The position numbers were made by a program, and so were the translations under genes. Under the pieces are notes generated by a model, which made no database searches, was not told the origin of the DNA, and was given only the letters and a program-made list of their open reading frames with translations. Shown here piece by piece: positions 15,808 through 63,580 of a stretch of 64,000 nucleotides of DNA. How positions within the stretch are numbered: position 1 is the stretch's first letter; each line of letters starts with the position of its first letter. The stretch is from Negaprion brevirostris (Eukaryota): contig JARDVH010000193.1 of assembly GCA_030324005.1 (NCBI GenBank), forward strand, positions 86,991,550-87,055,549, read 5' to 3'.

Positions 15808-16040
15808 TGTGGTAATGATACACTTTCTCAGACTTCGTTTGAAACATTAAAGGTAAATCATTCATAAGAAAAGCTATACCTGGGGCCATCAGTCAGCATG
15901 GCTGCTGGTAGGTCCCTACATGGCTACTGCCTCAGAGCAGACTCCACCCCATGGGGTGTCTACTCACACTGCCCCAGTTGGTCCCCCAAGCCAGGTGACC
16001 CTCTTCTGTGGTGTTGCCCTTAAAGGGACAAATCATCACA
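15808..16040 (-). repeat. 3' LTR of copy A (~233 bp), preceded by the polypurine tract at 16041-16050
   Basis: Minus strand reads AAGGGAGGCA | TGTGATGATTTGTCCCTTTAAGGGCAACAC...GAAGTCTGAGAAAGTGTATCATTACCACA. Aligns along its length with 56859-57085. Confidence 0.8.
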
Positions 16041-16074
16041 TGCCTCCCTTATACAACCTTCCATAAGTTGCTCA

Positions 16075-16150
16075 ATCCTAAATTTTAACTATAAATTATA
16101 CAGATAAATCCTAAATTTTAACTATAAAATATACAGATAAATTATACAGA
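16075..16150. repeat. ~33-bp tandem duplication in the 3' UTR of copy A
   Basis: atcctaaattttaactataaa(t/a)tatacagataa occurs twice, plus a partial third unit. Confidence 0.9.
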
Positions 16151-16279
16151 TATACAAATAAATTTTAACATTAATTATATAGATAATTATAAATTGAGGC
16201 TTCAAGGGTTTTTCTGTTTTTTGTGAAGTGGTGTAATTCTGAGATGCTTCCATGGATTAACACTGACAGGACTTGCAAT

Positions 16280-16555
16280 AACAAGTACCTCTTCTTCTCT
16301 TCTGGCACAGGCAGTTCATTATTACTTGCTTCCACAGAGACATCAGTTATGTCTATGACAGTTTGTTCAGGCACTTCAATGCTTACAAGTTTGACAGCAT
16401 TTTTTGATGGCAACACTGACTGCTGGAGCGTATCTCTACGCCTTAAGTGATCGATATGCTTATAAACAACCAATCCCTCCATGTCTACTGGGTACGACAA
16501 GGGTGCAGTCTCATTCTGCAGATCTGACTTGATCCACCAGCAAATTTTTATGTTA
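16280..16555 (-). pseudogene. Gypsy integrase C-terminal tail (copy A)
   Basis: ORF 16171..16569 contains ETAPLSYPVDMEGLVVYKHIDHLRRR...VPEEKKRY, matching the Gypsy integrase C-terminal motif TGPLSYxV...RRHxDHLRRR...RRYP. Confidence 0.8.
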
Positions 16556-16774
16556 TGACAACATGTCATATTATGTACTTAATATGGGTTTATTATTAGC
16601 GTAACACTGTCCACTGATGAGATCTTAAAGCTTGCATGTTTAAACATAAACACTTTTTTGGAAGGCTTTATCTATGACAGTTCCAAATGTACTGTTAACA
16701 GTTTTTTTTTCACAGTCTCAGTCTGTCACGTGTGAAGAAATGGTCGTAGTACTCTGTTTCTGGGATTAGATAGT

Positions 16775-17853
16775 GGGTGGAATTCTCCCAAAAATATTTG
16801 TGTTTGTGTGAAAAGTGGAGTAATACACGCTGTTTTTTTCAATGGGAGTTCAGTGAAGAATCTCCCACACTCTGTGCACTGCAGAGGCCACCAGTATGAA
16901 TATTATTAAATTTCAGGGGACAGGGCCTAGTCCCGTTGGAGAGGCTGGAATCAGCACTCTGAGCGGGCCACTGTGCATGCCCCGATCTGTCAGTGGTGAG
17001 ATTGGTGCATGTGTAGTGGCCCTGCACTGCTGGCATCCCGATTGCTNNNNNNNNNNNNNNNNNNNNNNNNNNNNNNNNNNNNNNNNNNNNNNNNNNNNNN
17101 NNNNNNNNNNNNNNNNNNNNNNNNNNNNNNNNNNNNNNNNNNNNNNNNNNNNNNNNNNNNNNNNNNNNNNNNNNNNNNNNNNNNNNNNNNNNNNNNNNNN
17201 NNNNNNNNNNNNNNNNNNNNNNNNNNNNNNNNNNNNNNNCCCCCCGCAGTGCCAAACCCCCAGCAGGCTGAATGCTCCCTCACCCAGATCGTTGCTGTCC
17301 CTGCTTCCTCCATCGATCCCGATGCAGAGTTGCAGCAGGAACCCCCACCAATTGCGTCCTAGCCCTGCCCCCATCATGCCCATCTGCCCAAGCCCTGCCA
17401 CCATATTCCCTGTCCCTTGGCATTGCCCCATGCCCAATGGGTAGTACCAAGGTGTCCCCTGAACATTGGCACTTTGCCCATTGGGTAGTGCTGGGGGCCC
17501 AGGCTGGCACTGACAGGGTACCAATGCCCAGGGGGCACTCCTCCTCATTGTCTGACCCTCTGGAGGGCCCCAATTGCCCCACTTCACTCCGGCAGGGTCG
17601 GGCTGCTAGTTTCCTGCAAGTGAGGAGCTACTGTAATCCTCGCTGGAGTGAAGTACTCTGACAGGGTGGGAAATACTAGAGGGCCCAGAGAGTGTTCAGT
17701 CCCAGGCCCACTAATCAAATTTGAATTATATTAAAATGACTATTTAAATGATCTTTGCTGATTTCCAATGCTGATCTGATGGTTCTGGAAATCTGGCATT
17801 GGGAGATACTAGCATGAACCCTGCAAATTGGCTGATGCAAGAAACTCTCGGCC
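16775..17853. mobile_element. GC-rich ~1 kb Harbinger-type MITE nested in copy A
   Basis: Termini gggtggaattctccca ... aaactctcggcc. Flanks agt/agc. Homologous, in reverse orientation, to 55382-56383. Confidence 0.75.
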
Positions 17854-19420
17854 AGCATATCTTTCATTGACCATTTTATCATATTGGTTCTTGTGTTTTT
17901 TTATTAATGTGACCATTTCAGCAATCGTGGCCGCGATTCTCCCACTGCAACGTTTCTGTCGGGTCACGGTGGGAGACGTGTGCCTGTGGCCTTGAACAGG
18001 GATTTGTGCTTGCGCCAGAAACACATGCGCATCTCCCAGAGCCAGCGAACAGTCACTGGTTAGACCACACTGGAAACCAGCAGGAAGGCAGGTAAGTAAT
18101 TTAGATCTGTTTTAAATATGCGCATTAGGTCATTATCTGATCGAATCTCCAACCCCACCAGGAGTATCTCATTCTAGTGGGGATCAGACTAGCTTCTCAC
18201 ATTCGGGGAACTAGCGGGGTACGCTGCTGGAATGAAAGGGGTGAATTGAGGCCCCCCCAGGAGGTTGGGCATGGGGGGTGGTGCCCCTAGGCATGGGCAC
18301 CCTGGCAGTGCCAGCCTGTGCCCCCTGCCACTGCCCAGAAGGCATTGGGCAGTGCCAAGGGGGTGGGGTCTACTGTGCATGGGACCTAGCAGCAATTGGT
18401 GGGAGTGGGTGTCCTGCTGCCACTCTGCAGACAGGATCGATCTGGAATGGAGGGAAGGCAGCAATTGGGGCAGGTTGGGGGGGCTNNNNNNNNNNNNNNN
18501 NNNNNNNNNNNNNNNNNNNNNNNNNNNNNNNNNNNNNNNNNNNNNNNNNNNNNNNNNNNNNNNNNNNNNNNNNNNNNNNNNNNNNNNNNNNNNNNNNNNN
18601 NNNNNNNNNNNNNNNNNNNNNNNNNNNNNNNNNNNNNNNNNNNNNNNNNNNNNNNNNNNNNNNNNNNNNNNNNNNNNNNNNNNNNNNNNNNNNNNNNNNN
18701 NNNNNNNNNNNNNNNNNNNNNNNNNNNNNNNNNNNNNNNNNNNNNNNNNNNNNNNNNNNNNNNNNNNNNNNNNNNNNNNNNNNNNNNNNNNNNNNNNNNN
18801 NNNNNNNNNNNNNNNNNNNNNNNNNNNNNNNNNNNNNNNNNNNNNNNNNNNNNNNNNNNNNNNNNNNNNNNNNNNNNNNNNNNNNNNNNNNNNNNNNNNN
18901 NNNNNNNNNNNNNNNNNNNNNNNGATGGGCATGTAACGTCAATTTCTTACTCTGTCTGAATTGTTGATTCTGCTGTCAGTTTCGATGCATTACCTCTTCA
19001 GCTAATTTCTCATTGACAAGTTTCCCTTCTTCAACTCTTATTCTCCTGATTCAGTTCTTCACTGGACTTGTTCTTATTTTCTGGTTGCTTTTCATTCATT
19101 ATCTCTAATTTCTCCTTCTTCTTAATTTCATTTTGTCAATTTTTGCAACTTCTTTCTTCAAGTTTCCCTGTCAGCCATTTCATCATATTGTTTCAACGTC
19201 TACTCTGGACCTTTATTTCTTCTTGCTGAAACCTTTCTATGTTCAATTGTTACTAACTTTTGAAGCCTTTAGTTTCTACATTTCTCCAGAGGAGAGTCCA
19301 TCATACCCTTAGTGGACACGTACATTTCACAAGTATAACCTATTGTAATTGTTGATCAGGTCTGTCTCCAGTAGAATGTTTACTTGTTTCCATTTTGCAA
19401 CTCACTTGTTGTCCTTCAAT
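17854..19420 (-). pseudogene. SYCP1: intronless SYCP1-derived coiled-coil segment in copy A (interrupted by a MITE and a gap)
   Basis: Minus translations KQPENKNKSSEELNQENK, EKLAEEV and IAEMVTLIKKHKNQYDKMVNE match vertebrate SYCP1 KQVENKNKYIEELQQENK, ENLLEEVEK and CQHKIAEMVALMEKHKHQYDKIIEE, in the same order. Confidence 0.8.
17929..18923. mobile_element. GC-rich ~1 kb Harbinger-type MITE nested in the SYCP1-like part; right end in gap
   Basis: Starts GGCCGCGATTCTCCC and is collinear with 55382-55990 (gaaaccagcaggaaggcaggtaag, gggcaccctggcagtgcca). Confidence 0.8.
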
Positions 19421-20626
19421 TGGTCATTTAGTCTCTTTGATTGCCCCTGTTCTGAGATCTTTAAATGCTCTTCAGGTGTCCTTCACTGCGTCCTTCTGGG
19501 GTCTTTTATTACCCTCCTTATGGGGTCTTTAAGTGCCCTTCTTCTGGGTCACCTTTTGCCAACTTTCTGAGGTCTTAGATTTTCTCCTAATAGAGGGTTT
19601 TTTTGCTCTCTTTGACTCCTGTAAGATCCCCCATCGAAGCTCTTTCTTGAAGCTTTCATTTCCTCCTCTAGGTCTTCTGTCGCTCAATCCTTGATGTATT
19701 CATTGCTTATGGACATTTTCTAAGGGTTGCCTTCTTTCCAGGGCTTCTCCAATTTTCCTGTTCATAGACTTTTGTTCCTTCTTTGGTTGCTGTTTTAATT
19801 ACAATATCACTTTAAATGTATTGCCACTTTAAGATGGTTATCTTTTATTTCATTGAACTGCCAGAGCTGCTGGCTCTCTCTGCGTTTTTCCCACGCTTTT
19901 AGAGTTGAGTTTTGGCTGCTCTTTTTATTTGAATTTTTAAAAATTCCGCTTTTACTGTTTGTGATCTGTGTTTTTTTTCTTCTGGCTACTTGGAGAGTCC
20001 TCTCTTTCTCTTTTTTGATGTGTCAGTCTTTTTTATCAACATCACTGGAACGCCAAGTTCCATCAGGCCCTTGTTTATATACTGGTTAACTTCTTTTGAA
20101 AATTGTTGAGCACGTCTCTTCTTTTCTACAAGTTCAGAACTGCTCTGTTTAAAGCCCAGCAGCACAGGGATTGCTGCTACTCAACCCCCACAAGCTCTTC
20201 TCTGATTGGGAACTTATCAATTTCAGCCTCTTTATTTTCCCGTGCTTTGGGATAGTTCACAGCAGCTACCTGGGGCATTCCCTTCTTTTTGACTTCAAGC
20301 CTGTTTTCTGTATTCTCTTTTCAAACAAAACTGTGCAGCAATTCTTTTAAAAAAAACTTAAGCTATATTTTCTTCTACTCATAAAGGCACAGCTCTCACT
20401 TCGCGGGGTTAGAGTCTCTTGATTTCTTTTTTTCTCTTTCTATATTTCTAAACTTTTAACTCCACCAGCCACTTCAGGTTTCTTCTGCATCTGTCCTTCA
20501 GAGTCTGGCAATATTTTAACATCTCAAGTGGGTCTATTCACCTAAAGAGGTATTCTGGTGAGTTAATTTTCTCAACCTTTGTTTTTATAGAGCACTGGCC
20601 CTTTTTTTGCTGTTAACGCATTCTGC

Positions 20627-20822
20627 NNNNNNNNNNNNNNNNNNNNNNNNNNNNNNNNNNNNNNNNNNNNNNNNNNNNNNNNNNNNNNNNNNNNNNNNNN
20701 NNNNNNNNNNNNNNNNNNNNNNNNNNGAGTGTGGAGATTCAGGTGAGGAGCTGAACTGACAGAACCATCTGGATTTAGATCAGTTTTCCTGCCAATTCAG
20801 CACTTTTGGGGGAATCACCCCC
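20627..20822. mobile_element. right end of a GC-rich MITE (rest in gap)
   Basis: cagttttcctgccaattcagcacttttgggggaatcaccc matches the ends at 56345-56383 and 63530-63580. Confidence 0.7.
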
Positions 20823-55381: not shown

Positions 55382-56383
55382 GGCCGTGATTCTCCCATCG
55401 CGACCCACAACTTTTCTGGCTGGTCGCAGTGGGAGATGCGCGTCACCGGCCTTGTTCTAGGATCTGCGCATGCACTGGGAAAGCATGCACATCTCCCAGA
55501 GATGGTGAACAGTCGCCGGTCAGACTATGCAAGAAACCAGCAGGAAGGCAGGTAAGCAGTTTGAATCTGTTTTAAATGTATTTTAAGTATATTTAGCAGT
55601 TAATTATTAGGAATTTTCCAGTCCTGATTGAATCTCCCACCCTGCCAGGAGTATTTCATTCTGGTGGGGTTTACACTAGCTCCCCACATTTGGGGAACTA
55701 ACGGGAAACCCCACAAGAATGAAGGGGGGCAATCGGGGCCCCCCAGGGGTTTGGGTGGTAGGGAGTGGTCCCACGGGTATGGGCACCCTGGCAGTGCCAA
55801 CTTGTGCCCCCAGCATTGCCCAAGGGGCATTTTGGCACTGCCCATCAGGCATTGGCAGTGTCAAAGAGGCAGGGGCTCTTGTGGGTGAATCCTAGGGGCA
55901 ATTAGTGGGGTTGGGGGGGTCCCGCTGCCAGTTAGCAGACTGGATCGGTCTGGGGTAGAGGGATGGCAGTGATTGGGGCGGTCTGGTTTGTGGGGGGGGA
56001 GGGGGAGTCGCCACTGCTTGGGGGGAGTGGGCTGTGCTCCGGGATGGGGGAGGTGTCAGGCCTGCCCGGAATTGTTGTGGAGTCTGTGATGAGGCTGTGG
56101 TGTTGGGGGGGGGAGGGGTGCTGGAGGGGCAGCACTGCGAGGGTCCCGGGCTGGCCAGCGGTCGAGAAGTCTGACAAATCAGGACCATTGCTCATGCGCA
56201 GAGTTCCGGAACTGTCAGACTCCAGTGCGAGTAGGCCGGTCCCCCTGGGTTTTCAATGAGATTCACGATTGGGACCCCTGCAATGCAAGAGTGGGGAGAC
56301 TCAGGTGAGAAACTGGACTGAGAAAAGAGTTGGGATTTAGAACAGTTTTCCTGCCAATTTAGCACTTTGGGTGAATTACGGCC
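55382..56383. mobile_element. complete ~1.0 kb GC-rich PIF/Harbinger MITE with TAT TSD
   Basis: TIRs GGCCGTGATTC and GAATTACGGCC (10/11 match). TAT at 55379-55381 and 56384-56386. The host LINE is continuous across the insertion. Confidence 0.9.
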
Positions 56384-56858: not shown

Positions 56859-57085
56859 TGTGGTGATTGACACTTTAATGGCAACACAGCTGAAAAGGGT
56901 GACTAGCTTGGGGGTGCAATTAGGAATGAGAGTGGGTAATCACCCCTGGGTGTGAAATCTGCTCCTGGGCAGAGAATATGAAGGGAGCTGGGACAGTCAT
57001 ATGGGTTGCTGGCCTCTCTACGGTTTTCCTAATTAACAAATATCTTTTGTGTTTCTAGTGAAGGCTGGGGAAGTGCATCATTACA
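56859..57085 (+). repeat. 5' LTR of copy B
   Basis: TGTGGTGATTGACACTTTAATGGCAACAC...GAAGGCTGGGGAAGTGCATCATTACA; homologous to 15808-16040 (minus). Confidence 0.8.
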
Positions 57086-57087
57086 TC

Positions 57088-57100
57088 TGGCGATGAAGAT
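57088..57100 (+). promoter_or_regulatory. primer-binding site, tRNA-Ser(GCT)-type
   Basis: TGGCGATGAAGAT, 2 nt after the LTR CA, matches TGGCGACGAGGAT (complement of the tRNA-Ser(GCT) 3' end) at 11 of 13 positions. Confidence 0.8.
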
Positions 57101-57179
57101 ACAATTATGAAACTGCCTCTGGCCCAACACCTGTGAGAATCTTGTTTTAATCGAAGTCTGAGAAACAGTACTCAGCCGA

Positions 57180-57660
57180 GTGCCTCTCTTTGGGTGAATC
57201 CCATTTGAGATGTTGTGATATTGCCAGGCCCTGAGTAATGGAAAATCAAGCTGCATGTTTGATAGAGAGAGAGCATTAAAAGACCACTGGGCCAGAATCC
57301 ACAGAAGAATGAGCAAAATGCAGAAAAGTACCTCGACTCACATTGTTGACTAGAGGCATGGTGGTCCGTGACACTCAGTGCATTGGAGAGATGGAGGGAC
57401 AGACACAAAACAAACCTAGATCAAGAACTGTGCTTTAACGCTAAAAATAGGAACAAAGAGTTGCTGCAAAGGTTTGTTTTGAAGGGAAAAAGAGAACATA
57501 GGAAGTAATGTTTTGGATTGAAGAATTTCCCCCAGGAGTTGTATTAGAAAGTCAAGAGGCTTAGATGAACAAGCTCCTTTTTGGAGCACAGCCTGCAGGG
57601 GTTCCATGGCAGCAATTGTTGCATTTGTAGACTTCAAACAGAGAAATTCCAACATTTTTT
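57180..57660 (+). pseudogene. degenerate Gypsy gag (counterpart in copy A at ~20130-20553)
   Basis: Broken frames give (M)PLFG..PFE, ..W..Y.ERM-like, TLLT.ACGP-like, DTK..QEL, LLQRF...RE and DFKQ, following the fish/shark Gypsy gag pattern MPLFGxxDPF..DWxQYxER..LLTACG..DTKxFxEL..QRxRF..LDFK. Confidence 0.6.
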
Positions 57661-57999
57661 GTGAAAAAGAGAAATCCTCGGCCTATCTGAAAAGAAGAAA
57701 TTAAAAATCTTTAACATAAGCAATGCTCCTGAATGGACCACGCTGGATCTTCCAGTGAAATTGATGGACACATCATAAAAGAAAATACAACAGATTCTCC
57801 AGGCAGAAATCACTAAAAGGGCTTTCTTTCAGTAAAATTGTTTTAAAAGTTCAAAAAAAAAGCAAAACTTCAAAAGCTCGGAAGAACGCAGAAAGTTGTC
57901 AGCTGCTAAAAAGTTCAATGAAAAATAAGTGAAAGTCTTAAAGTAATTCATTCAAAGTGAGTAATATATTTAATGTGGTAATGCACCTAAAGTAGCAAT

Positions 58000-58340
58000 G
58001 GACAGGAAAATTGGAGAAGACCCCAGATAAAGACCAATTCTCAAAAAAGGCCCATAGGCAATGAAGACCTCAAGGAAAAGGCAATGCAAGACTTCAGAGG
58101 AAGCACTGAAAATCTTAAAGAAGAGGCAAGGCCAGGCCTCAGAGCAGGCAATGCAGACATCAAGAAAGAGGCAACAGAAGATCTCAAAGAAGAGACAGCT
58201 AAGACCCATAAAAGTGGGCACTGTGAGACCCCAGATGGAGGGCACTGAGTCCCAAAGGGCAATTAAAGACACCAGAAGGTTAGGCAATTCAGGACCACAG
58301 AAGGAAGGCATTGAAAGATCCCAGAAAGCAAGCAATATAA
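58000..58340 (+). repeat. degenerate ~21-24-bp tandem repeat (~13 units); counterpart at 19430-19770 minus
   Basis: Units such as aatgaagacctcaaggaaaaggc, aatgcagacatcaagaaagaggc and aattaaagacaccagaaggttaggc. Confidence 0.8.
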
Positions 58341-58349
58341 GATCCCACG

Positions 58350-59060
58350 AGAAGAACGACAAGGAAATTGCAGAATGGAAACAAGTCAACACTTCATTGG
58401 AGGCAGACCTGATGAAATGTAAAGCCAAAAAGGGTTTGCTTGAAGTTAACACAAGTAAAATTGAAGATTCCATTTGAAAATGCATATGTCCAGCAAGAAC
58501 ATGACGGATTCACCTGGGAAGAAGTACAAATGAAAGACTTCAAAAGAAATTAGAAACTATTCAACATAACAAGGAATCAACAAAAAGAGTTAAAGCTCCA
58601 GAGAAAACAAAATATCAAGATGAAATGACTGACAGCAAGCTTGAAAAAAGAGTTGCAAAAATTTACAAGATTAATTAAGGAGTACTTAATGAGAGAATGT
58701 AGAATTAGCTGAACTCCATGAAAAGCAACTCAAAAATAAGAACAAATCCAGTGAAGAATTGAATCAGGAGAATAAAAATTTTGAGAAAAAAGAATTGATC
58801 ATGAGAAATTAATTGAAGAGGTAGAAAACATTGAATCAACTGTTCAGAGTCAACTATTCAGACAGAGAAAGAAACAAATTATGTGCCAGAACAAGATTCC
58901 TGAAATTGTCGCAACAATAAAAAAAGCACAAGAACCAATATGATAAAATGGTTAATGAAAAAGATGCTAAATTGAAATGCTGGAAAGAGAAGAAATTTTA
59001 TCTCATGATCTAAGTACCAGAAACAGAGTACTACAATATTCCTTCACATGTGACAGTTGA
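58350..59060 (+). pseudogene. SYCP1: intronless SYCP1-derived coiled-coil segment in copy B
   Basis: KQLKNKNKSSEELNQENK, KRIDHEKLIEEVENIE and MCQNKIPEIVATI/KKHKNQYDKMVNEKDAKL match SYCP1 KQVENKNKYIEELQQENK, KKISEENLLEEVEK and RCQHKIAEMVALMEKHKHQYDKIIEERDSEL. Frameshifts and stops are present. Confidence 0.82.
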
Positions 59061-59409
59061 AGATTGTGAAAGAACTGTCAAGACATAAGATTTTATTATA
59101 TCGTGATGACATATATCTACATGCAGTATAATATAAGGTGCTCAACAGAGCAAGGATCGATGTGAGATTGGAGAGTGGCACCATTCACAGAATGATGAAC
59201 GTAGTCAGATAGTCAGAGAATAATTTAGGAGAGAACTCAGTAACCAGCATACCTGCATGGAACAGCTCCATGCAAGATTACATTTTGAACTGTACACAGT
59301 TAAAACCTACCAAAAACACTTCATGTTTAACAAATTGCAGGATCTCATCAATGAGCCATGACCACTGCAAGTATAAAAAACACACATTAAGAACATAATA
59401 TGACATGGT

Positions 59410-59530
59410 GTCATAATATGAAACTTTGATAATGGGTCAAGTTGGATCCCCAGAATTATTGCCACTGAGACTGGACCCCTGTCATACCCAGTAGACATGG
59501 AGGGATGGATCATTCGTAAATATGTAAAAA
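59410..59530 (+). pseudogene. Gypsy integrase C-terminal tail (copy B); continues at 61305-61520
   Basis: NFDNGSSWIPRIIATETGPLSYPVDMEGWIIRKYV. 61305-61520 matches 16230-16445 (ccagcagtcagt.ttgccatcaa, aactgcctgtgccagaagag, ggaagcatctcaga). Confidence 0.85.
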
Positions 59531-59531
59531 G

Positions 59532-59848
59532 TTGTTCTTGGGATTTGGGTGTTCTTGGCTAGGCCTGCACTTATTGCCCATCCCTGAGGACAGTTAAGAA
59601 TCCACCACTTTGCTGTGTATATGGAATCACATGTAAGCCAGACCAGCTAGGGATGATAGATTTCATTTGTTAAAGGACATTAGTGAATCAGATGGGTTTT
59701 TAATGATAATGATTTCATGGTCATCATTGGACTTTTAATTCCAGCTATTTATTGAATTCAAATTTCACCATCTGCCATGGGGGATTTCATTCCAGGCCTC
59801 CAGAACATTGCCCTGGATTACTAGTCCAGCAACAATGCCACGACATCA
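59532..59848 (-). mobile_element. tRNA-derived SINE, family 2
   Basis: Same core as 28032-28392. Confidence 0.85.
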
Positions 59849-59859
59849 CTGTCTCTTTT

Positions 59860-60830
59860 ATCCTGATACACTTGCCTGCACCCTCCTGTGTAGTTATGTC
59901 TTCCATTTTGTGCCACTGTGAAGATATCCTCATGTGGAGGATGACCTTCATCACCCTTTTCCAGTTCCTGCCCATCTAAGTCTTCATCATCCAAGGAAGT
60001 TGGAGCCTCCTGCATATCTCTTTCTGGCAAGTGATTTTCCCCTTGTACCCTGCACAACCTGGTGATTCAACAGACACAATGATGCGGAATACCCTCTGTG
60101 AAGAGTATAGCAATGTCCCACTTAAGTCGTTCAAACACCAGGAGTATGTCTTCAGGATGCCAATGGTTTGCTCAATGATGAACCTTGACACAGAGTGTGT
60201 CACTTGTACCTCTCCTCTGAGGCACCTTAAGGATGACACATGGTGTAATAAACCATCTCTTCAGCAAGTACCCCTTGCCACCCAGGAGCCAACCCTGTAC
60301 ATACTGTGGTCCTTTGAATATCTGAGGCACCTGGGAGTGATTCAGGATCTAGGAGTCATGGGAACTCCCAGAGTACCTGGCACAGACATGCATGATCTGC
60401 TTCTGATAATGGCAGATCAGCTCAATGTTAGGAGAGTGGAACCCATTAAAGTTAATAAAGATCAAAGCTATTGCCAAGGAGTTCTTAAAGCAACATCTGT
60501 ATTCTCAGTTGTACCCTGCACTTTGGTGAAGCATGAAATCACTACAAATGCCAGACATCTCTCAGCTTGACTGGCTTTATCCCTTGTGAACTTTACATAA
60601 TGATGAACCTTACTGTATCCGTCACCTCCATTATAGATTTATGTGTTGCAGCCTGAGAGATGCTGCATCAGTTCCCTGTGGAAATAATTATGTATGACGG
60701 TGAGCTTTAGGGGCACTTTCAGAGATAGCCTCTTATTCCATGCAGCATATGCTTCTCTCATAGAATTTGGTAGATATTTGGATATGTGTGGCACTGCCAT
60801 CTACAAATAGGAAAGGTGTTTTCGGGCAAC
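59860..60830 (-). pseudogene. PIF/Harbinger (HARBI1-like) DDE transposase fossil; element extends to ~61300
   Basis: Minus strand gives FTKVQGTTENTDVALRTP...FINFNGFHSPNIELICHYQKQIMHVCARYSGSSHDS*IL and HSVSRFIIEQTIGILKTYSWCLNDLSGTLLYSSQRVFRIIV. Confidence 0.9.
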
Positions 60831-61519
60831 TCTTGGTAGTGCTAGTCACCCCTGTGGGATGGATCTAACTTCCTCAGCCTCTGGATCTTCCTGGGACTCC
60901 TCTGGACCATGCTCCTCAGGCTGAGACTCTTTTCTAAGCTGTGCTTGAGGTGTTAGACCCTTCTTTGCCTCCTTAGTCTGAGCACTGCCACCAAGAAGGT
61001 AGCACTGGATGCAATCTCCATTCTGCAATCCTCTTTCTTCCTGTGGACAGATAGATCCAAGCAATTAATATGGATTAGTTAGTCATTCTGATTCTGACTT
61101 CTCAATAAAGCGTTCATGACTTTTGTCAACTGAGACTTCATTTTCATTTTGAGAACACAAGTGTGAGGGTTCCTCCTGAAAGGGCCCCTAGAAAAGCCTC
61201 TTCCCATATGCATCAGATTGCTCCTTTAGAGATTTCCTTACAGTTTCATTTTTAAACTGATAAACTGCATCATTGAAGTGGGGTTTCAAGTTGATGGCTC
61301 TATTCTTCAGAAGTAGCGGGAGATTCCAGCAGTCAGTCTTGCCATCAAGAAACATTTATGAACCTGAAAGTGCCAAAGTACCTGATCAACCTGTAATGGA
61401 CGTAACTGATTTTCTCCATGGAAGCAAGTAGTAATTAACTGCCTGTGCCAGAAGAGGTACCTGTTATTGCAGTCCTGTAATCTGAGATGCTGTGGAAGCA
61501 TCTCAGACTACAGAATTAC

Positions 61520-62180
61520 ACTGGTTAGCCATGGTAATAGATAAGCAACAATCTGTCATATCAATAAAGAATTGGAATGGGTCAACTTCAATGGTGTGAG
61601 AACTGATCAGGCACAGGTAAATGGAATCAAAGACTGGGAGGTAAAATTATAACTGAACAATGGGATGTTTTTAAAGTTATAGTTCAGGCAGAATAAAAGA
61701 AAGGAGTCACAGAATGGGGGATGATGGTAGGGTAAGTAAACCTAGAGGTCCTTGAATGAAGAAAGGGATTGGGATTAAAGTGAAGCAAAAAAAAGATGCA
61801 GATGGTACATGTTAGATTTTAAGTGCAATTAAGAACTAGGTTGAATGTAGAAGGTTCATGGGGTGAAGTGAAAAAGCAAATAAGAATGGCAAAGGCAGAG
61901 TATGGAGACTGGCAGCTAACATAAAGGGGAATCAAAATTGGCTTATAAATAGAAAAGGTTGAAGAAGAGTGAGGCTGATTAGAAACCTAAAAGGGGATTG
62001 ACACATGGAGTCAGCATGGTTTAGGGACTAAATGAATACTTTGCATATACCTTATCAAGGAAGAAGATAGCACCTAAGGGTAAAAGGCAAGAGAAAGGAA
62101 CAAGTGAGTTGCTCTTGCAGAGCACTGATACAGAATTGGCAGGCTGAATGTCTGTACTACAACAATTCTATGACTCTATG
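61520..62180 (+). mobile_element. old CR1 ORF2 linker fragments plus tail
   Basis: EVKKQIRMAKAEY..LAANIKGN and LNEYFA motifs; tail aattctatgactctatga. Confidence 0.7.
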
Positions 62181-62606
62181 AAGCTTGGGCTGTTTTAATT
62201 GATGAGGCTGATTCAAATAATCTTCTGTTGTTTCTTGCCTGATGCTTCAAAGACATCAGGCCCAACTGGTGGGAATGGAAATGGTGGTGAGAACATGATG
62301 CCAGCATAAACCCACCATTATGAGGCATGTCATGGAGCAAGCTCTTAGAGGGAAGATTTAAGCAGTGAATAATCGTTACAGGTTTTCACATTTGCAAGGA
62401 AAATGTGTTCTGGATCTCCCATGCAGTTGGAATATAATTTTCCTTGATTAGCTAGCCTAACTTGACTGTTTAGAAAGATTAATCAATTTAGAATTATTAT
62501 TCCTTCTACAGTGAAAATGTCAAGTAATGTTGATATTTTACTTTAAATCTATTACATTTCTGTCTTTATCCAATTCTGTTGAAAGGTCTGAAATGTTAAT
62601 CAATTA

Positions 62607-63580
62607 CTCCAGGATTCTCCCATCCTGACCCACTAATTTTTCGGCAGTTGGGCCAGGAAAGTTGTGCATGCGCTAATTTGCGGGATTCGCACATGCGTTC
62701 CCGATGCACGCACATCTCCCAGTTCGGATATCTGGCGTGATCGGGACCACATTGGAAACGGGTGGGAGCAGCAGGTAAGTAATTTTAATCTATTTTTAAT
62801 GTTATTTGAATGCCATTACCAGGCTCAATATAATTTCACTCCAGCCGAGTTTAGAGAAGCTCCCCACTTTCGGGGAACTAGTGGGAGACACCACTGGAGT
62901 GAAGGGGGCAATCAGGGCCACCCAGGTGGTCGGGCAGTGGGGAGGTGGTGCTTGTTGGGCATGGGGACCCTGGCAATAACAACCTGTTCCTCCTGGTACT
63001 GCCCAGGGGACACCTTGGCATTGCCCATTTGGCATCAGGACCTAGGGCAAGGGGCTCAGGACAATTGGTGGGGGTGGGGCACCCACTGCCATTCTACATT
63101 GGGATCAATCGGGGCTGGAGAAAGACCAGTGATCGGGGCAGATGGGGGGGAATGCCTGCTGGGGTGACGGGCGGGGGGAGCGCGCTGGGGGGAAGGTTGC
63201 TGAAGATCAGAGCACTTCTGGCTGAGATGTGCGCAGCGGGGAGGGGTCAGGACTAGCCCGGGAATGCTTATGCGCACCACGATTGGGCAGTGGGAGACTG
63301 GAGGGCAGCACTAAGGGGGTCCCATGCTGGCCTGCAATCGAACTGGCCCACAAACCAGAGGCTGACAGATTGGGGCCACTGCGCATGCGTAGAGGCCTGG
63401 ACCTGTCAGATTCTGACATGATAGGCCACACCCCAGAGCTTTTAACGATATTTCCAATTGTGACCTCTGCATAAGAGCGTGAGAGATTCGAGTCTGAACT
63501 CCCACTCAAAAAACAGTCGTGATCTACACCAGTTTTCCTGCAAATTCAGCACTTAGAACTTTTTTGGGAGAATCGCCCCC
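62607..63580. mobile_element. GC-rich ~1 kb Harbinger-type MITE
   Basis: ccaggattctccca ... tgggagaatcgccc; collinear with 55382-56383. Confidence 0.8.

Follow-up and report, generated by a model that had tools for sequence, protein, structure and literature searches.

The window analysed here, a stretch of 64,000 nucleotides (nt) from the shark Negaprion brevirostris (C193:86991550-87055549, in an examined genome of 2.69 Gb), holds at 56859..61520 a decayed retroelement with long terminal repeats (LTRs) and, in its interior, a segment derived from the meiotic gene SYCP1. Read together with its relatives elsewhere in the genome, the element likely represents a dead Gypsy-type LTR family that carries one full turn of a SYCP1 circular RNA (circRNA), captured by template switching, a reading whose probability we put at about 0.82. 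An earlier note on this DNA, drawn from the sequence alone, had proposed instead that a captured SYCP1 complementary DNA (cDNA) replaced the pol region of a Gypsy element. The parts of the window copy, in window positions, are the following (aa, amino acids; tRNA, transfer RNA).

56859..57085, + strand: 5' LTR of type A (LTR-A), 227 bp, TG..CA; both ends of other copies carry the same sequence
57088..57100, + strand: primer binding site (PBS) for tRNA-Ser(GCU), 11 of 13 bases matching the complement of the host tRNA-Ser(GCU) gene plus CCA
57170..57950, + strand: decayed internal region at the gag position, gag identity unconfirmed, common to the A and B forms
58020..58360, + strand: K/R/E-rich tandem repeat of the element, detected by Tandem Repeats Finder (TRF), occurring in the A and B forms
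58520..58993, + strand: SYCP1 insert, first part, from base 80 of the exon for aa 524-563 through spliced exons to ~aa 755, with an internal deletion
58986..59023, + strand: SYCP1 insert, last part, bases ~51-84 of the same exon (aa ~541-553), placed after aa 755
59102..59405, + strand: internal LTR of type B (LTR-B), its polypurine tract (PPT) deleted, matching the terminal LTR pair of the long copy L039
59410..59525, + strand: first half of the integrase C-terminal tail, homologous to the segment directly after the rve core in proteins P0030 and P0031
59526..61304, - strand: later insertion from outside the family, with a DDE_Tnp_4 (PIF/Harbinger-like) remnant at ~60235-60468 (Pfam E 2.1e-7)
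61305..61520, + strand: second half of the integrase tail and 3' internal region, joining 59525 directly in other copies

The SYCP1 insert and its parent gene

SCP-1 was the sole Pfam family matched at 58785-58940 (E 9.8e-5, just under the curated cut-off), and the SYCP1-like part found only two matches in PDB, both SYCP1 and both weak (E 0.07 and 0.39). At the DNA level, 58934-59013 shares 69 of 80 bases with one parent exon, and the family copies are 75-86% identical to the parent exons, so that the match is no mere product of coiled-coil resemblance and its assignment to SYCP1 holds. The homology claimed earlier for 58350-59060 therefore stands in kind, while its extent is 58520-59023 and its order is permuted rather than that of a collinear cDNA.

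The parent SYCP1 gene lies on the minus strand of contig C143, from ~37.40 to 37.01 Mb, with exons 78-98% identical to Scyliorhinus SYCP1. Six of its exons, given here in the numbering of protein model P0006 and all bounded by AG/GT ends, were compared with the copies.

Exon A, - strand of C143: aa 524-563 (118 nt)
Exon B, - strand of C143: aa 637-656
Exon C, - strand of C143: aa 657-696
Exon D, - strand of C143: aa 734-764
Exon E, - strand of C143: aa 790-812
Exon F, - strand of C143: aa 813-878

Each of the six turned up a single time in the parent region, exon A lying 137 kb upstream of exon E. Because the copies match these exons and not the intron flanks (27-38% identity), and because exons B and C are joined directly (offset 0 or 1 in seven of the eight long copies holding both), the insert derives from spliced RNA. 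Two peculiarities of SYCP1 models in other species may be recorded alongside. The S. canicula models P0003, P0005 and P0006 repeat a 35-aa block (aa 421-490) that is absent from S. torazame and rays and reflects either an exon duplication or an assembly error, and the Mobula model P0007 departs from SYCP1 at ~aa 547 to continue into a PF23055-type piece, probably through splicing into an intronic retroelement.

Circular permutation and the ends of the insert

The copies start at ~aa 552 and not at an end of the gene, and the best of them resume with aa 525-553 after aa 812. Exon E is present in ten of 66 sequences, namely nine long family copies and the locus L062, and in five of the nine long copies (L031, L040, L067, L073 and L072) its end runs into the first base of exon A with offset 0. 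Of the other four, L076 matches over 5 nt up to a deletion, L066 and L068 are interrupted by small deletions, and L039 is unreadable at this point. A 27-base junction pattern, searched with at most 3 mismatches, occurred at seven places genome-wide, two of which had not come up before; the control gave 0. Since exons in reversed order are joined here exactly at AG/GT splice sites, the E-to-A join is best taken as a back-splice junction. It connects a phase-0 donor to a phase-2 acceptor, a clash of phases followed by a stop within three codons, which places the junction outside any working gene. A collinear capture of SYCP1 messenger RNA (mRNA) or cDNA, as first proposed, does not fit a circularly permuted insert of this kind.

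Exons outside the circle were sought downstream by DNA comparison (exon F) and upstream by protein search only. Exon F appeared in one of the 66 sequences, L062 (C31:39.578-39.585 Mb), with a linear E-F junction. This locus, a linear processed SYCP1 copy of aa 711-993 with a piece of the 3' untranslated region and no match to LTR-A or LTR-B, serves as a control.

Both ends of the insert map to exon A. On the entry side, where 35 of 58 copies could be read from an anchor at exon A bases 87-100, agreement with the parent climbs from 20% over bases 60-79 to 74% over bases 80-86; on the exit side, where 47 of 58 could be read from an anchor at bases 59-80, it drops from 72-89% over bases 80-84 to 6-14% over bases 85-87. 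Because parent identity rises and falls at these positions, the insert starts at base 80 and ends at base 84, so that entry and exit overlap by 5 nt, and all copies share both switch points. Given that entry and exit coincide within 5 nt, the insert would measure one circle length plus 5 shared bases, that is, one full turn. When contigs from four public sequencing runs were aligned to the parent exon, with no anchor imposed, their matches ended at bases 84, 51 and (one contig) 80. These runs behaved as DNA, and under two of their three organism labels the sequences differ from the host at 5 and 13 places in ~320 bases.

In the window copy, the first part of the insert agrees with the parent exons in 30 of 36 and 69 of 80 bases, tblastn concurring, and the last part agrees with the exon for aa 524-563 in 35 of 42. 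The piece at 58986..59023 would be the remnant of the back-spliced end left after a deletion, and the window copy as a whole appears to be a derived short form whose junction was lost in that way.

Architecture, spread and decay of the family

A genome search with 58300-59100 returned 760 candidates. Scoring 40 of these yielded 42 matches, spread over many contigs and, leaving aside the window's own, 72-83% identical to the query. The SCP-1 profile found 57 matches in the genome, 56 of them within profile positions 525-769 and one at a true exon. At 61 loci chosen via SYCP1 (two pairs overlapping), the order of LTR, repeat, insert and tail is that of the window, so the expected linkage of LTR and tail to SYCP1 at other loci holds for loci selected in this manner and is only partly shown where SYCP1 was not the query. 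Six loci were chosen by LTR-A and PBS: one carries SYCP1, one, shortened by deletion, retains 21 nt of insert, and four are interrupted or truncated before the insert position. Among six further loci, chosen by the LTR-B flank, four carry SYCP1, one has only the exit site, beside a gap, and one is truncated. Linked pieces at many loci, common switch points and the lack of intron flanks bear out the proposal of a non-autonomous LTR family with one capture of SYCP1 RNA followed by transposition. At one locus (L015) the SYCP1 segment occurs twice, in opposite orientations.

The hallmarks of an LTR retroelement recur across the copies. The TG..CA repeat at 56859-57085 was found at both ends of other copies, and a genome search gave 526 candidates with 40 scored; the LTR-A pairs of L004, L008, L020 and L032 are 68-81% identical and the LTR-B pair of L039 76%, all with TG..CA ends. 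The predicted tRNA-Ser PBS matches the host tRNA-Ser(GCU) at 11 of 13 positions in the window copy and at 13 of 13 in L017, an assignment that covers LTR-A copies and uses a host gene located by Rfam and missed by ARAGORN. A purine tract precedes the 3' LTR in full copies of both the LTR-A and LTR-B kind, and a 5-bp target duplication, examined in five full copies, is exact in two, retains 4 of 5 bases in two and is absent from one. At the start of some LTR-A copies (L084, L032), the terminal sequence is duplicated in tandem over 10 bp. The K/R-rich tandem repeat was likewise confirmed, TRF resolving it into units at 58056-58174 (period 45, 2.6 copies) and 58298-58356 (period 24).

The coding remains are scant. 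The two pieces of the integrase C-terminal tail, at ~59410-59525 and 61305-61520, share homology with the part of P0030 and P0031 that directly follows rve; a protein search with one natural copy as query reached E ~4e-4 in 1.84 billion proteins, and among the seven matches two carry rve, three have no Pfam family and the top two are repeat proteins. No integrase core was detected in 92 sequences, and reverse transcriptase, RNase H and protease are absent from the reading frames of the window by Pfam, as the earlier note had reported. Its gag remnant, on the other hand, found no backing: the region has no Pfam match, and a genome search with it gave 246 candidates of which the 150 scored include no clearly intact relative (the longest frame, of 330, was not inspected). 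Its motifs may resemble those of Mag-type gag. Word-index protein searches with the integrase tail and with an open reading frame piece of the long form found no annotated protein from a copy in another species. Judged by its LTRs, PBS, PPT, target duplications and integrase tail, the element appears to be a dead, non-autonomous member of the Gypsy type.

Two forms and two LTR types can be distinguished. None of the nine long copies carries LTR-A and eight match LTR-B, which forms the terminal pair in L039, is partial in L066 and has a purine tract before its 3' copy. Short copies are the majority, the window copy included. A deletion from exon D (~base 55-60) to exon A (~base 51) has removed the junction from them, most of exon B is gone as well, and the insert is followed by a whole internal LTR-B without purine tract, the integrase tail and then LTR-A. 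In the window this internal LTR is the segment at 59102-59405, a second, different LTR that the earlier list of parts had lacked; the purine tract that precedes LTR-B in long copies is absent before it. L087 and L089 combine a short insert with a long-form flank reaching into the stretch lost by the window copy, and look intermediate between the forms. The arrangement suggests the order long form with LTR-B, short form with LTR-B, short form within LTR-A. The long form, the oldest architecture, has no integrase tail between the insert and the 3' LTR; so the tail was brought in by the second host element, that of LTR-A. Replacement of pol by SYCP1 finds no backing here, as the tail belongs to an element entered later, and none of the 12 loci chosen by LTR or flank is an empty precursor. 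The sole empty-donor candidate, L084, still has 21 nt from the start of the insert. An autonomous helper element was not found, the sequences examined holding no pol core.

The window copy has neither a 3' LTR nor a PPT of its own, the best downstream placement of LTR-A scoring 41 against >100 for real LTRs. The insertion at 59526..61304 has matches at 0-3 loci in each 50-bp bin, where the integrase tail that follows has 28-33, and also holds a short repeat seen elsewhere in the window. A second family member lies ~36 kb from the first and in the opposite orientation.

15815..20630, - strand: second family copy in the window, with two insertions and gaps, a PPT and a 3' LTR-A (16044-15815)

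Copies of a GC-rich repeat of ~1 kb occur in the window at 55408-56380, 62600-63560, 17000-18500 and 20727-20809, two of them inside this second element.

Divergence and diagnostic sites both bear on the age of the family. LTR pairs differ by Kimura two-parameter (K2P) distances of 0.22-0.43. At ten sites separating two Scyliorhinus proteins from two rays, where the test by design groups the host with Scyliorhinus, most copies have the shark state at seven and the ray state at three, and at three sites changed only in the host lineage the copies keep the older state at all three; some sites in this tally rest on 5-11 copies. This fits a capture on the shark stem, after the split of sharks and rays (~270-300 million years ago) and before the host lineage parted from Scyliorhinus. 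All examined copies are decayed, none has a long open frame, and stops interrupt most SYCP1 matches. An open frame of 980 aa at C59 proved to be an assembly gap artefact. The insert is most likely a passenger without present function.

Origin of the insert and its precedents

Under the reading favoured here, a back-spliced SYCP1 circle of ~0.9 kb would have been co-packaged with element RNA in a germ cell, where SYCP1 is expressed. During minus-strand synthesis, reverse transcriptase would have switched to the circle at a 5-nt match and completed one lap while RNase H degraded the template behind it, a step drawn from retroviral biology; with the template exhausted at the entry point after exactly one lap, a jump back to the element would have been forced. 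The product, the long form with LTR-B, may then have owed its copying to an autonomous helper acting in trans. Deletions inside it would have given rise to the short form, which might have entered an LTR-A element by nested insertion or recombination, lost its inner polypurine tract and gone on to yield most copies. As to the captured template, the idea of a SYCP1 RNA survives from the earlier note, with a back-spliced circular RNA most likely in place of the mRNA.

Several points weigh against this account. We infer the circle from genomic copies alone, and the same junction is expected from a scrambled linear transcript. The window copy has no junction, and its interpretation depends on the long copies. 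Matches by tblastn at 20-29% identity to aa 380-520, at up to seven loci per bin, were taken as coiled-coil noise without DNA comparison, and the exon comparison itself covers A-F, with gaps at aa 564-636 (where family copies crowd out the parent exons), 697-733 and 765-789 and directly ahead of A. No empty or autonomous donor turned up among the 12 loci, and the microhomology between element and circle, like the part of the element that was replaced, is a deduction.

A linear template would most directly account for the same junction: an exon-scrambled or trans-spliced transcript, or an mRNA with an ancestral tandem duplication of aa 524-812, copied through double template switching, yields an identical splice-site-exact join, and tandem exon duplication is suggested for SYCP1 by the repeated block of the S. 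canicula models. Such an origin is nevertheless unlikely, as it leaves unexplained why entry and exit fall on the same 5 nt out of ~900, the junction breaks the reading frame and runs at once into a stop, and a duplication is at odds with the single occurrence of each exon in the parent region. The coincidence of entry and exit would also follow if circular cDNA or DNA made from the circRNA had recombined, by one crossover at the 5 shared bases, with an element that was non-autonomous beforehand, with nothing replaced and no lap-limited reverse transcription. Campbell-type integration of this sort predicts exactly one unit and a short duplication at both ends, as seen, and the long form indeed has no pol remnant on either side of the insert; yet an empty element with contiguous flanks is missing from the 12 loci, L084 retaining the 21 nt already mentioned, and the documented route is template switching with ~6-bp microsimilarity (PMC5131818), so that we regard this variant as highly improbable.

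Hardly credible, finally, is the notion that a linear SYCP1 mRNA replaced Gypsy pol and was internally rearranged later, possibly being kept for a gag-SYCP1 coiled-coil product or for its RNA in meiosis. Internal rearrangement, in the form of deletions, does occur in the copies, and the insert is sense-oriented behind the gag position, but a later rearrangement, of DNA or during reverse transcription, would have no reason to hit both splice sites (a chance of ~0.001 within the two exons alone). As regards selection, the form with the most copies has lost parts of the insert, and there is no long open frame.

Beyond the capture of a circRNA in a single turn, we lean towards the view that the family is a shark-stem fossil of a germline circRNA and that its one-lap geometry records how LTR elements copy circRNAs. 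If so, the fossil would be far older than the described mouse and primate circRNA cases, back-splicing of a meiotic gene would be dated to the shark stem, with this particular SYCP1 circle predicted in living sharks, and a circRNA passenger would have reached high copy number by way of two LTR families in succession. On the practical side, copies exceed the Pfam SCP-1 cut-off (the 57 matches above), and both the annotation of SYCP1 and the mapping of reads in sharks can be led astray by them.

SYCP1 RNA is a known substrate of germline retroposition in the mouse, where Sycp1 retropseudogenes are linear, lie outside any LTR element and have not been amplified as a family; L062, a linear processed copy, resembles them. 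A literature search returned no report of an LTR family carrying SYCP1, with the repeat databases Repbase and Dfam, subscription journals and preprint supplements outside its scope, and such a family could stand in repeat databases under an uninformative name. The earlier statement that no family like this had been described was too strong, since both halves of the phenomenon have precedents (PMC5131818, PMC4897178). In the mouse, 33 circRfwd2 pseudogenes have a non-collinear junction and MMERVK10C-int neighbours, their mechanism being called mysterious and left open (PMC4897178). The shark family resembles them in its multiple copies, its non-collinear exon junction, the restriction to exons of the circle, the linkage to LTRs and the existence of separate linear copies. 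The circRfwd2 set differs in being mouse-specific, with 33-42 copies in an endogenous retrovirus context and a main text without switch-point analysis (PMC4897178), whereas the shark family is of Gypsy type and shark-stem age, numbers hundreds of candidates, has a mapped one-turn entry and exit, and was apparently relayed via two LTR types.

The other precedent is the capture of linear mRNAs by LTR elements in animals through template switching at ~6-bp microsimilarity, followed by secondary spread (PMC5131818). Partial spliced host sequence, short shared sequence at the switch points and non-autonomous spread are common to these cases and the present one; they differ in their linear mRNA templates and in being young and of low copy number, and the word 'circular' is absent from the main text. 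Maize Bs1, described there, is likewise an LTR element with captured spliced host fragments and switch points common to all copies, and differs in its 1-5 copies, its three linear mRNA donors and its plant host (PMC5131818). The coincident, mapped switch points of the shark family offer a specific and testable mechanism for circRNA retrotransposition, the question left open in PMC4897178, and if the one-lap rule is true it should extend to mouse circRfwd2-MMERVK10C and to undetected 'permuted gene fragment' repeats elsewhere. The shark SYCP1 family thus unites two precedents hitherto described apart, the circRNA pseudogene and the LTR retrocopy.

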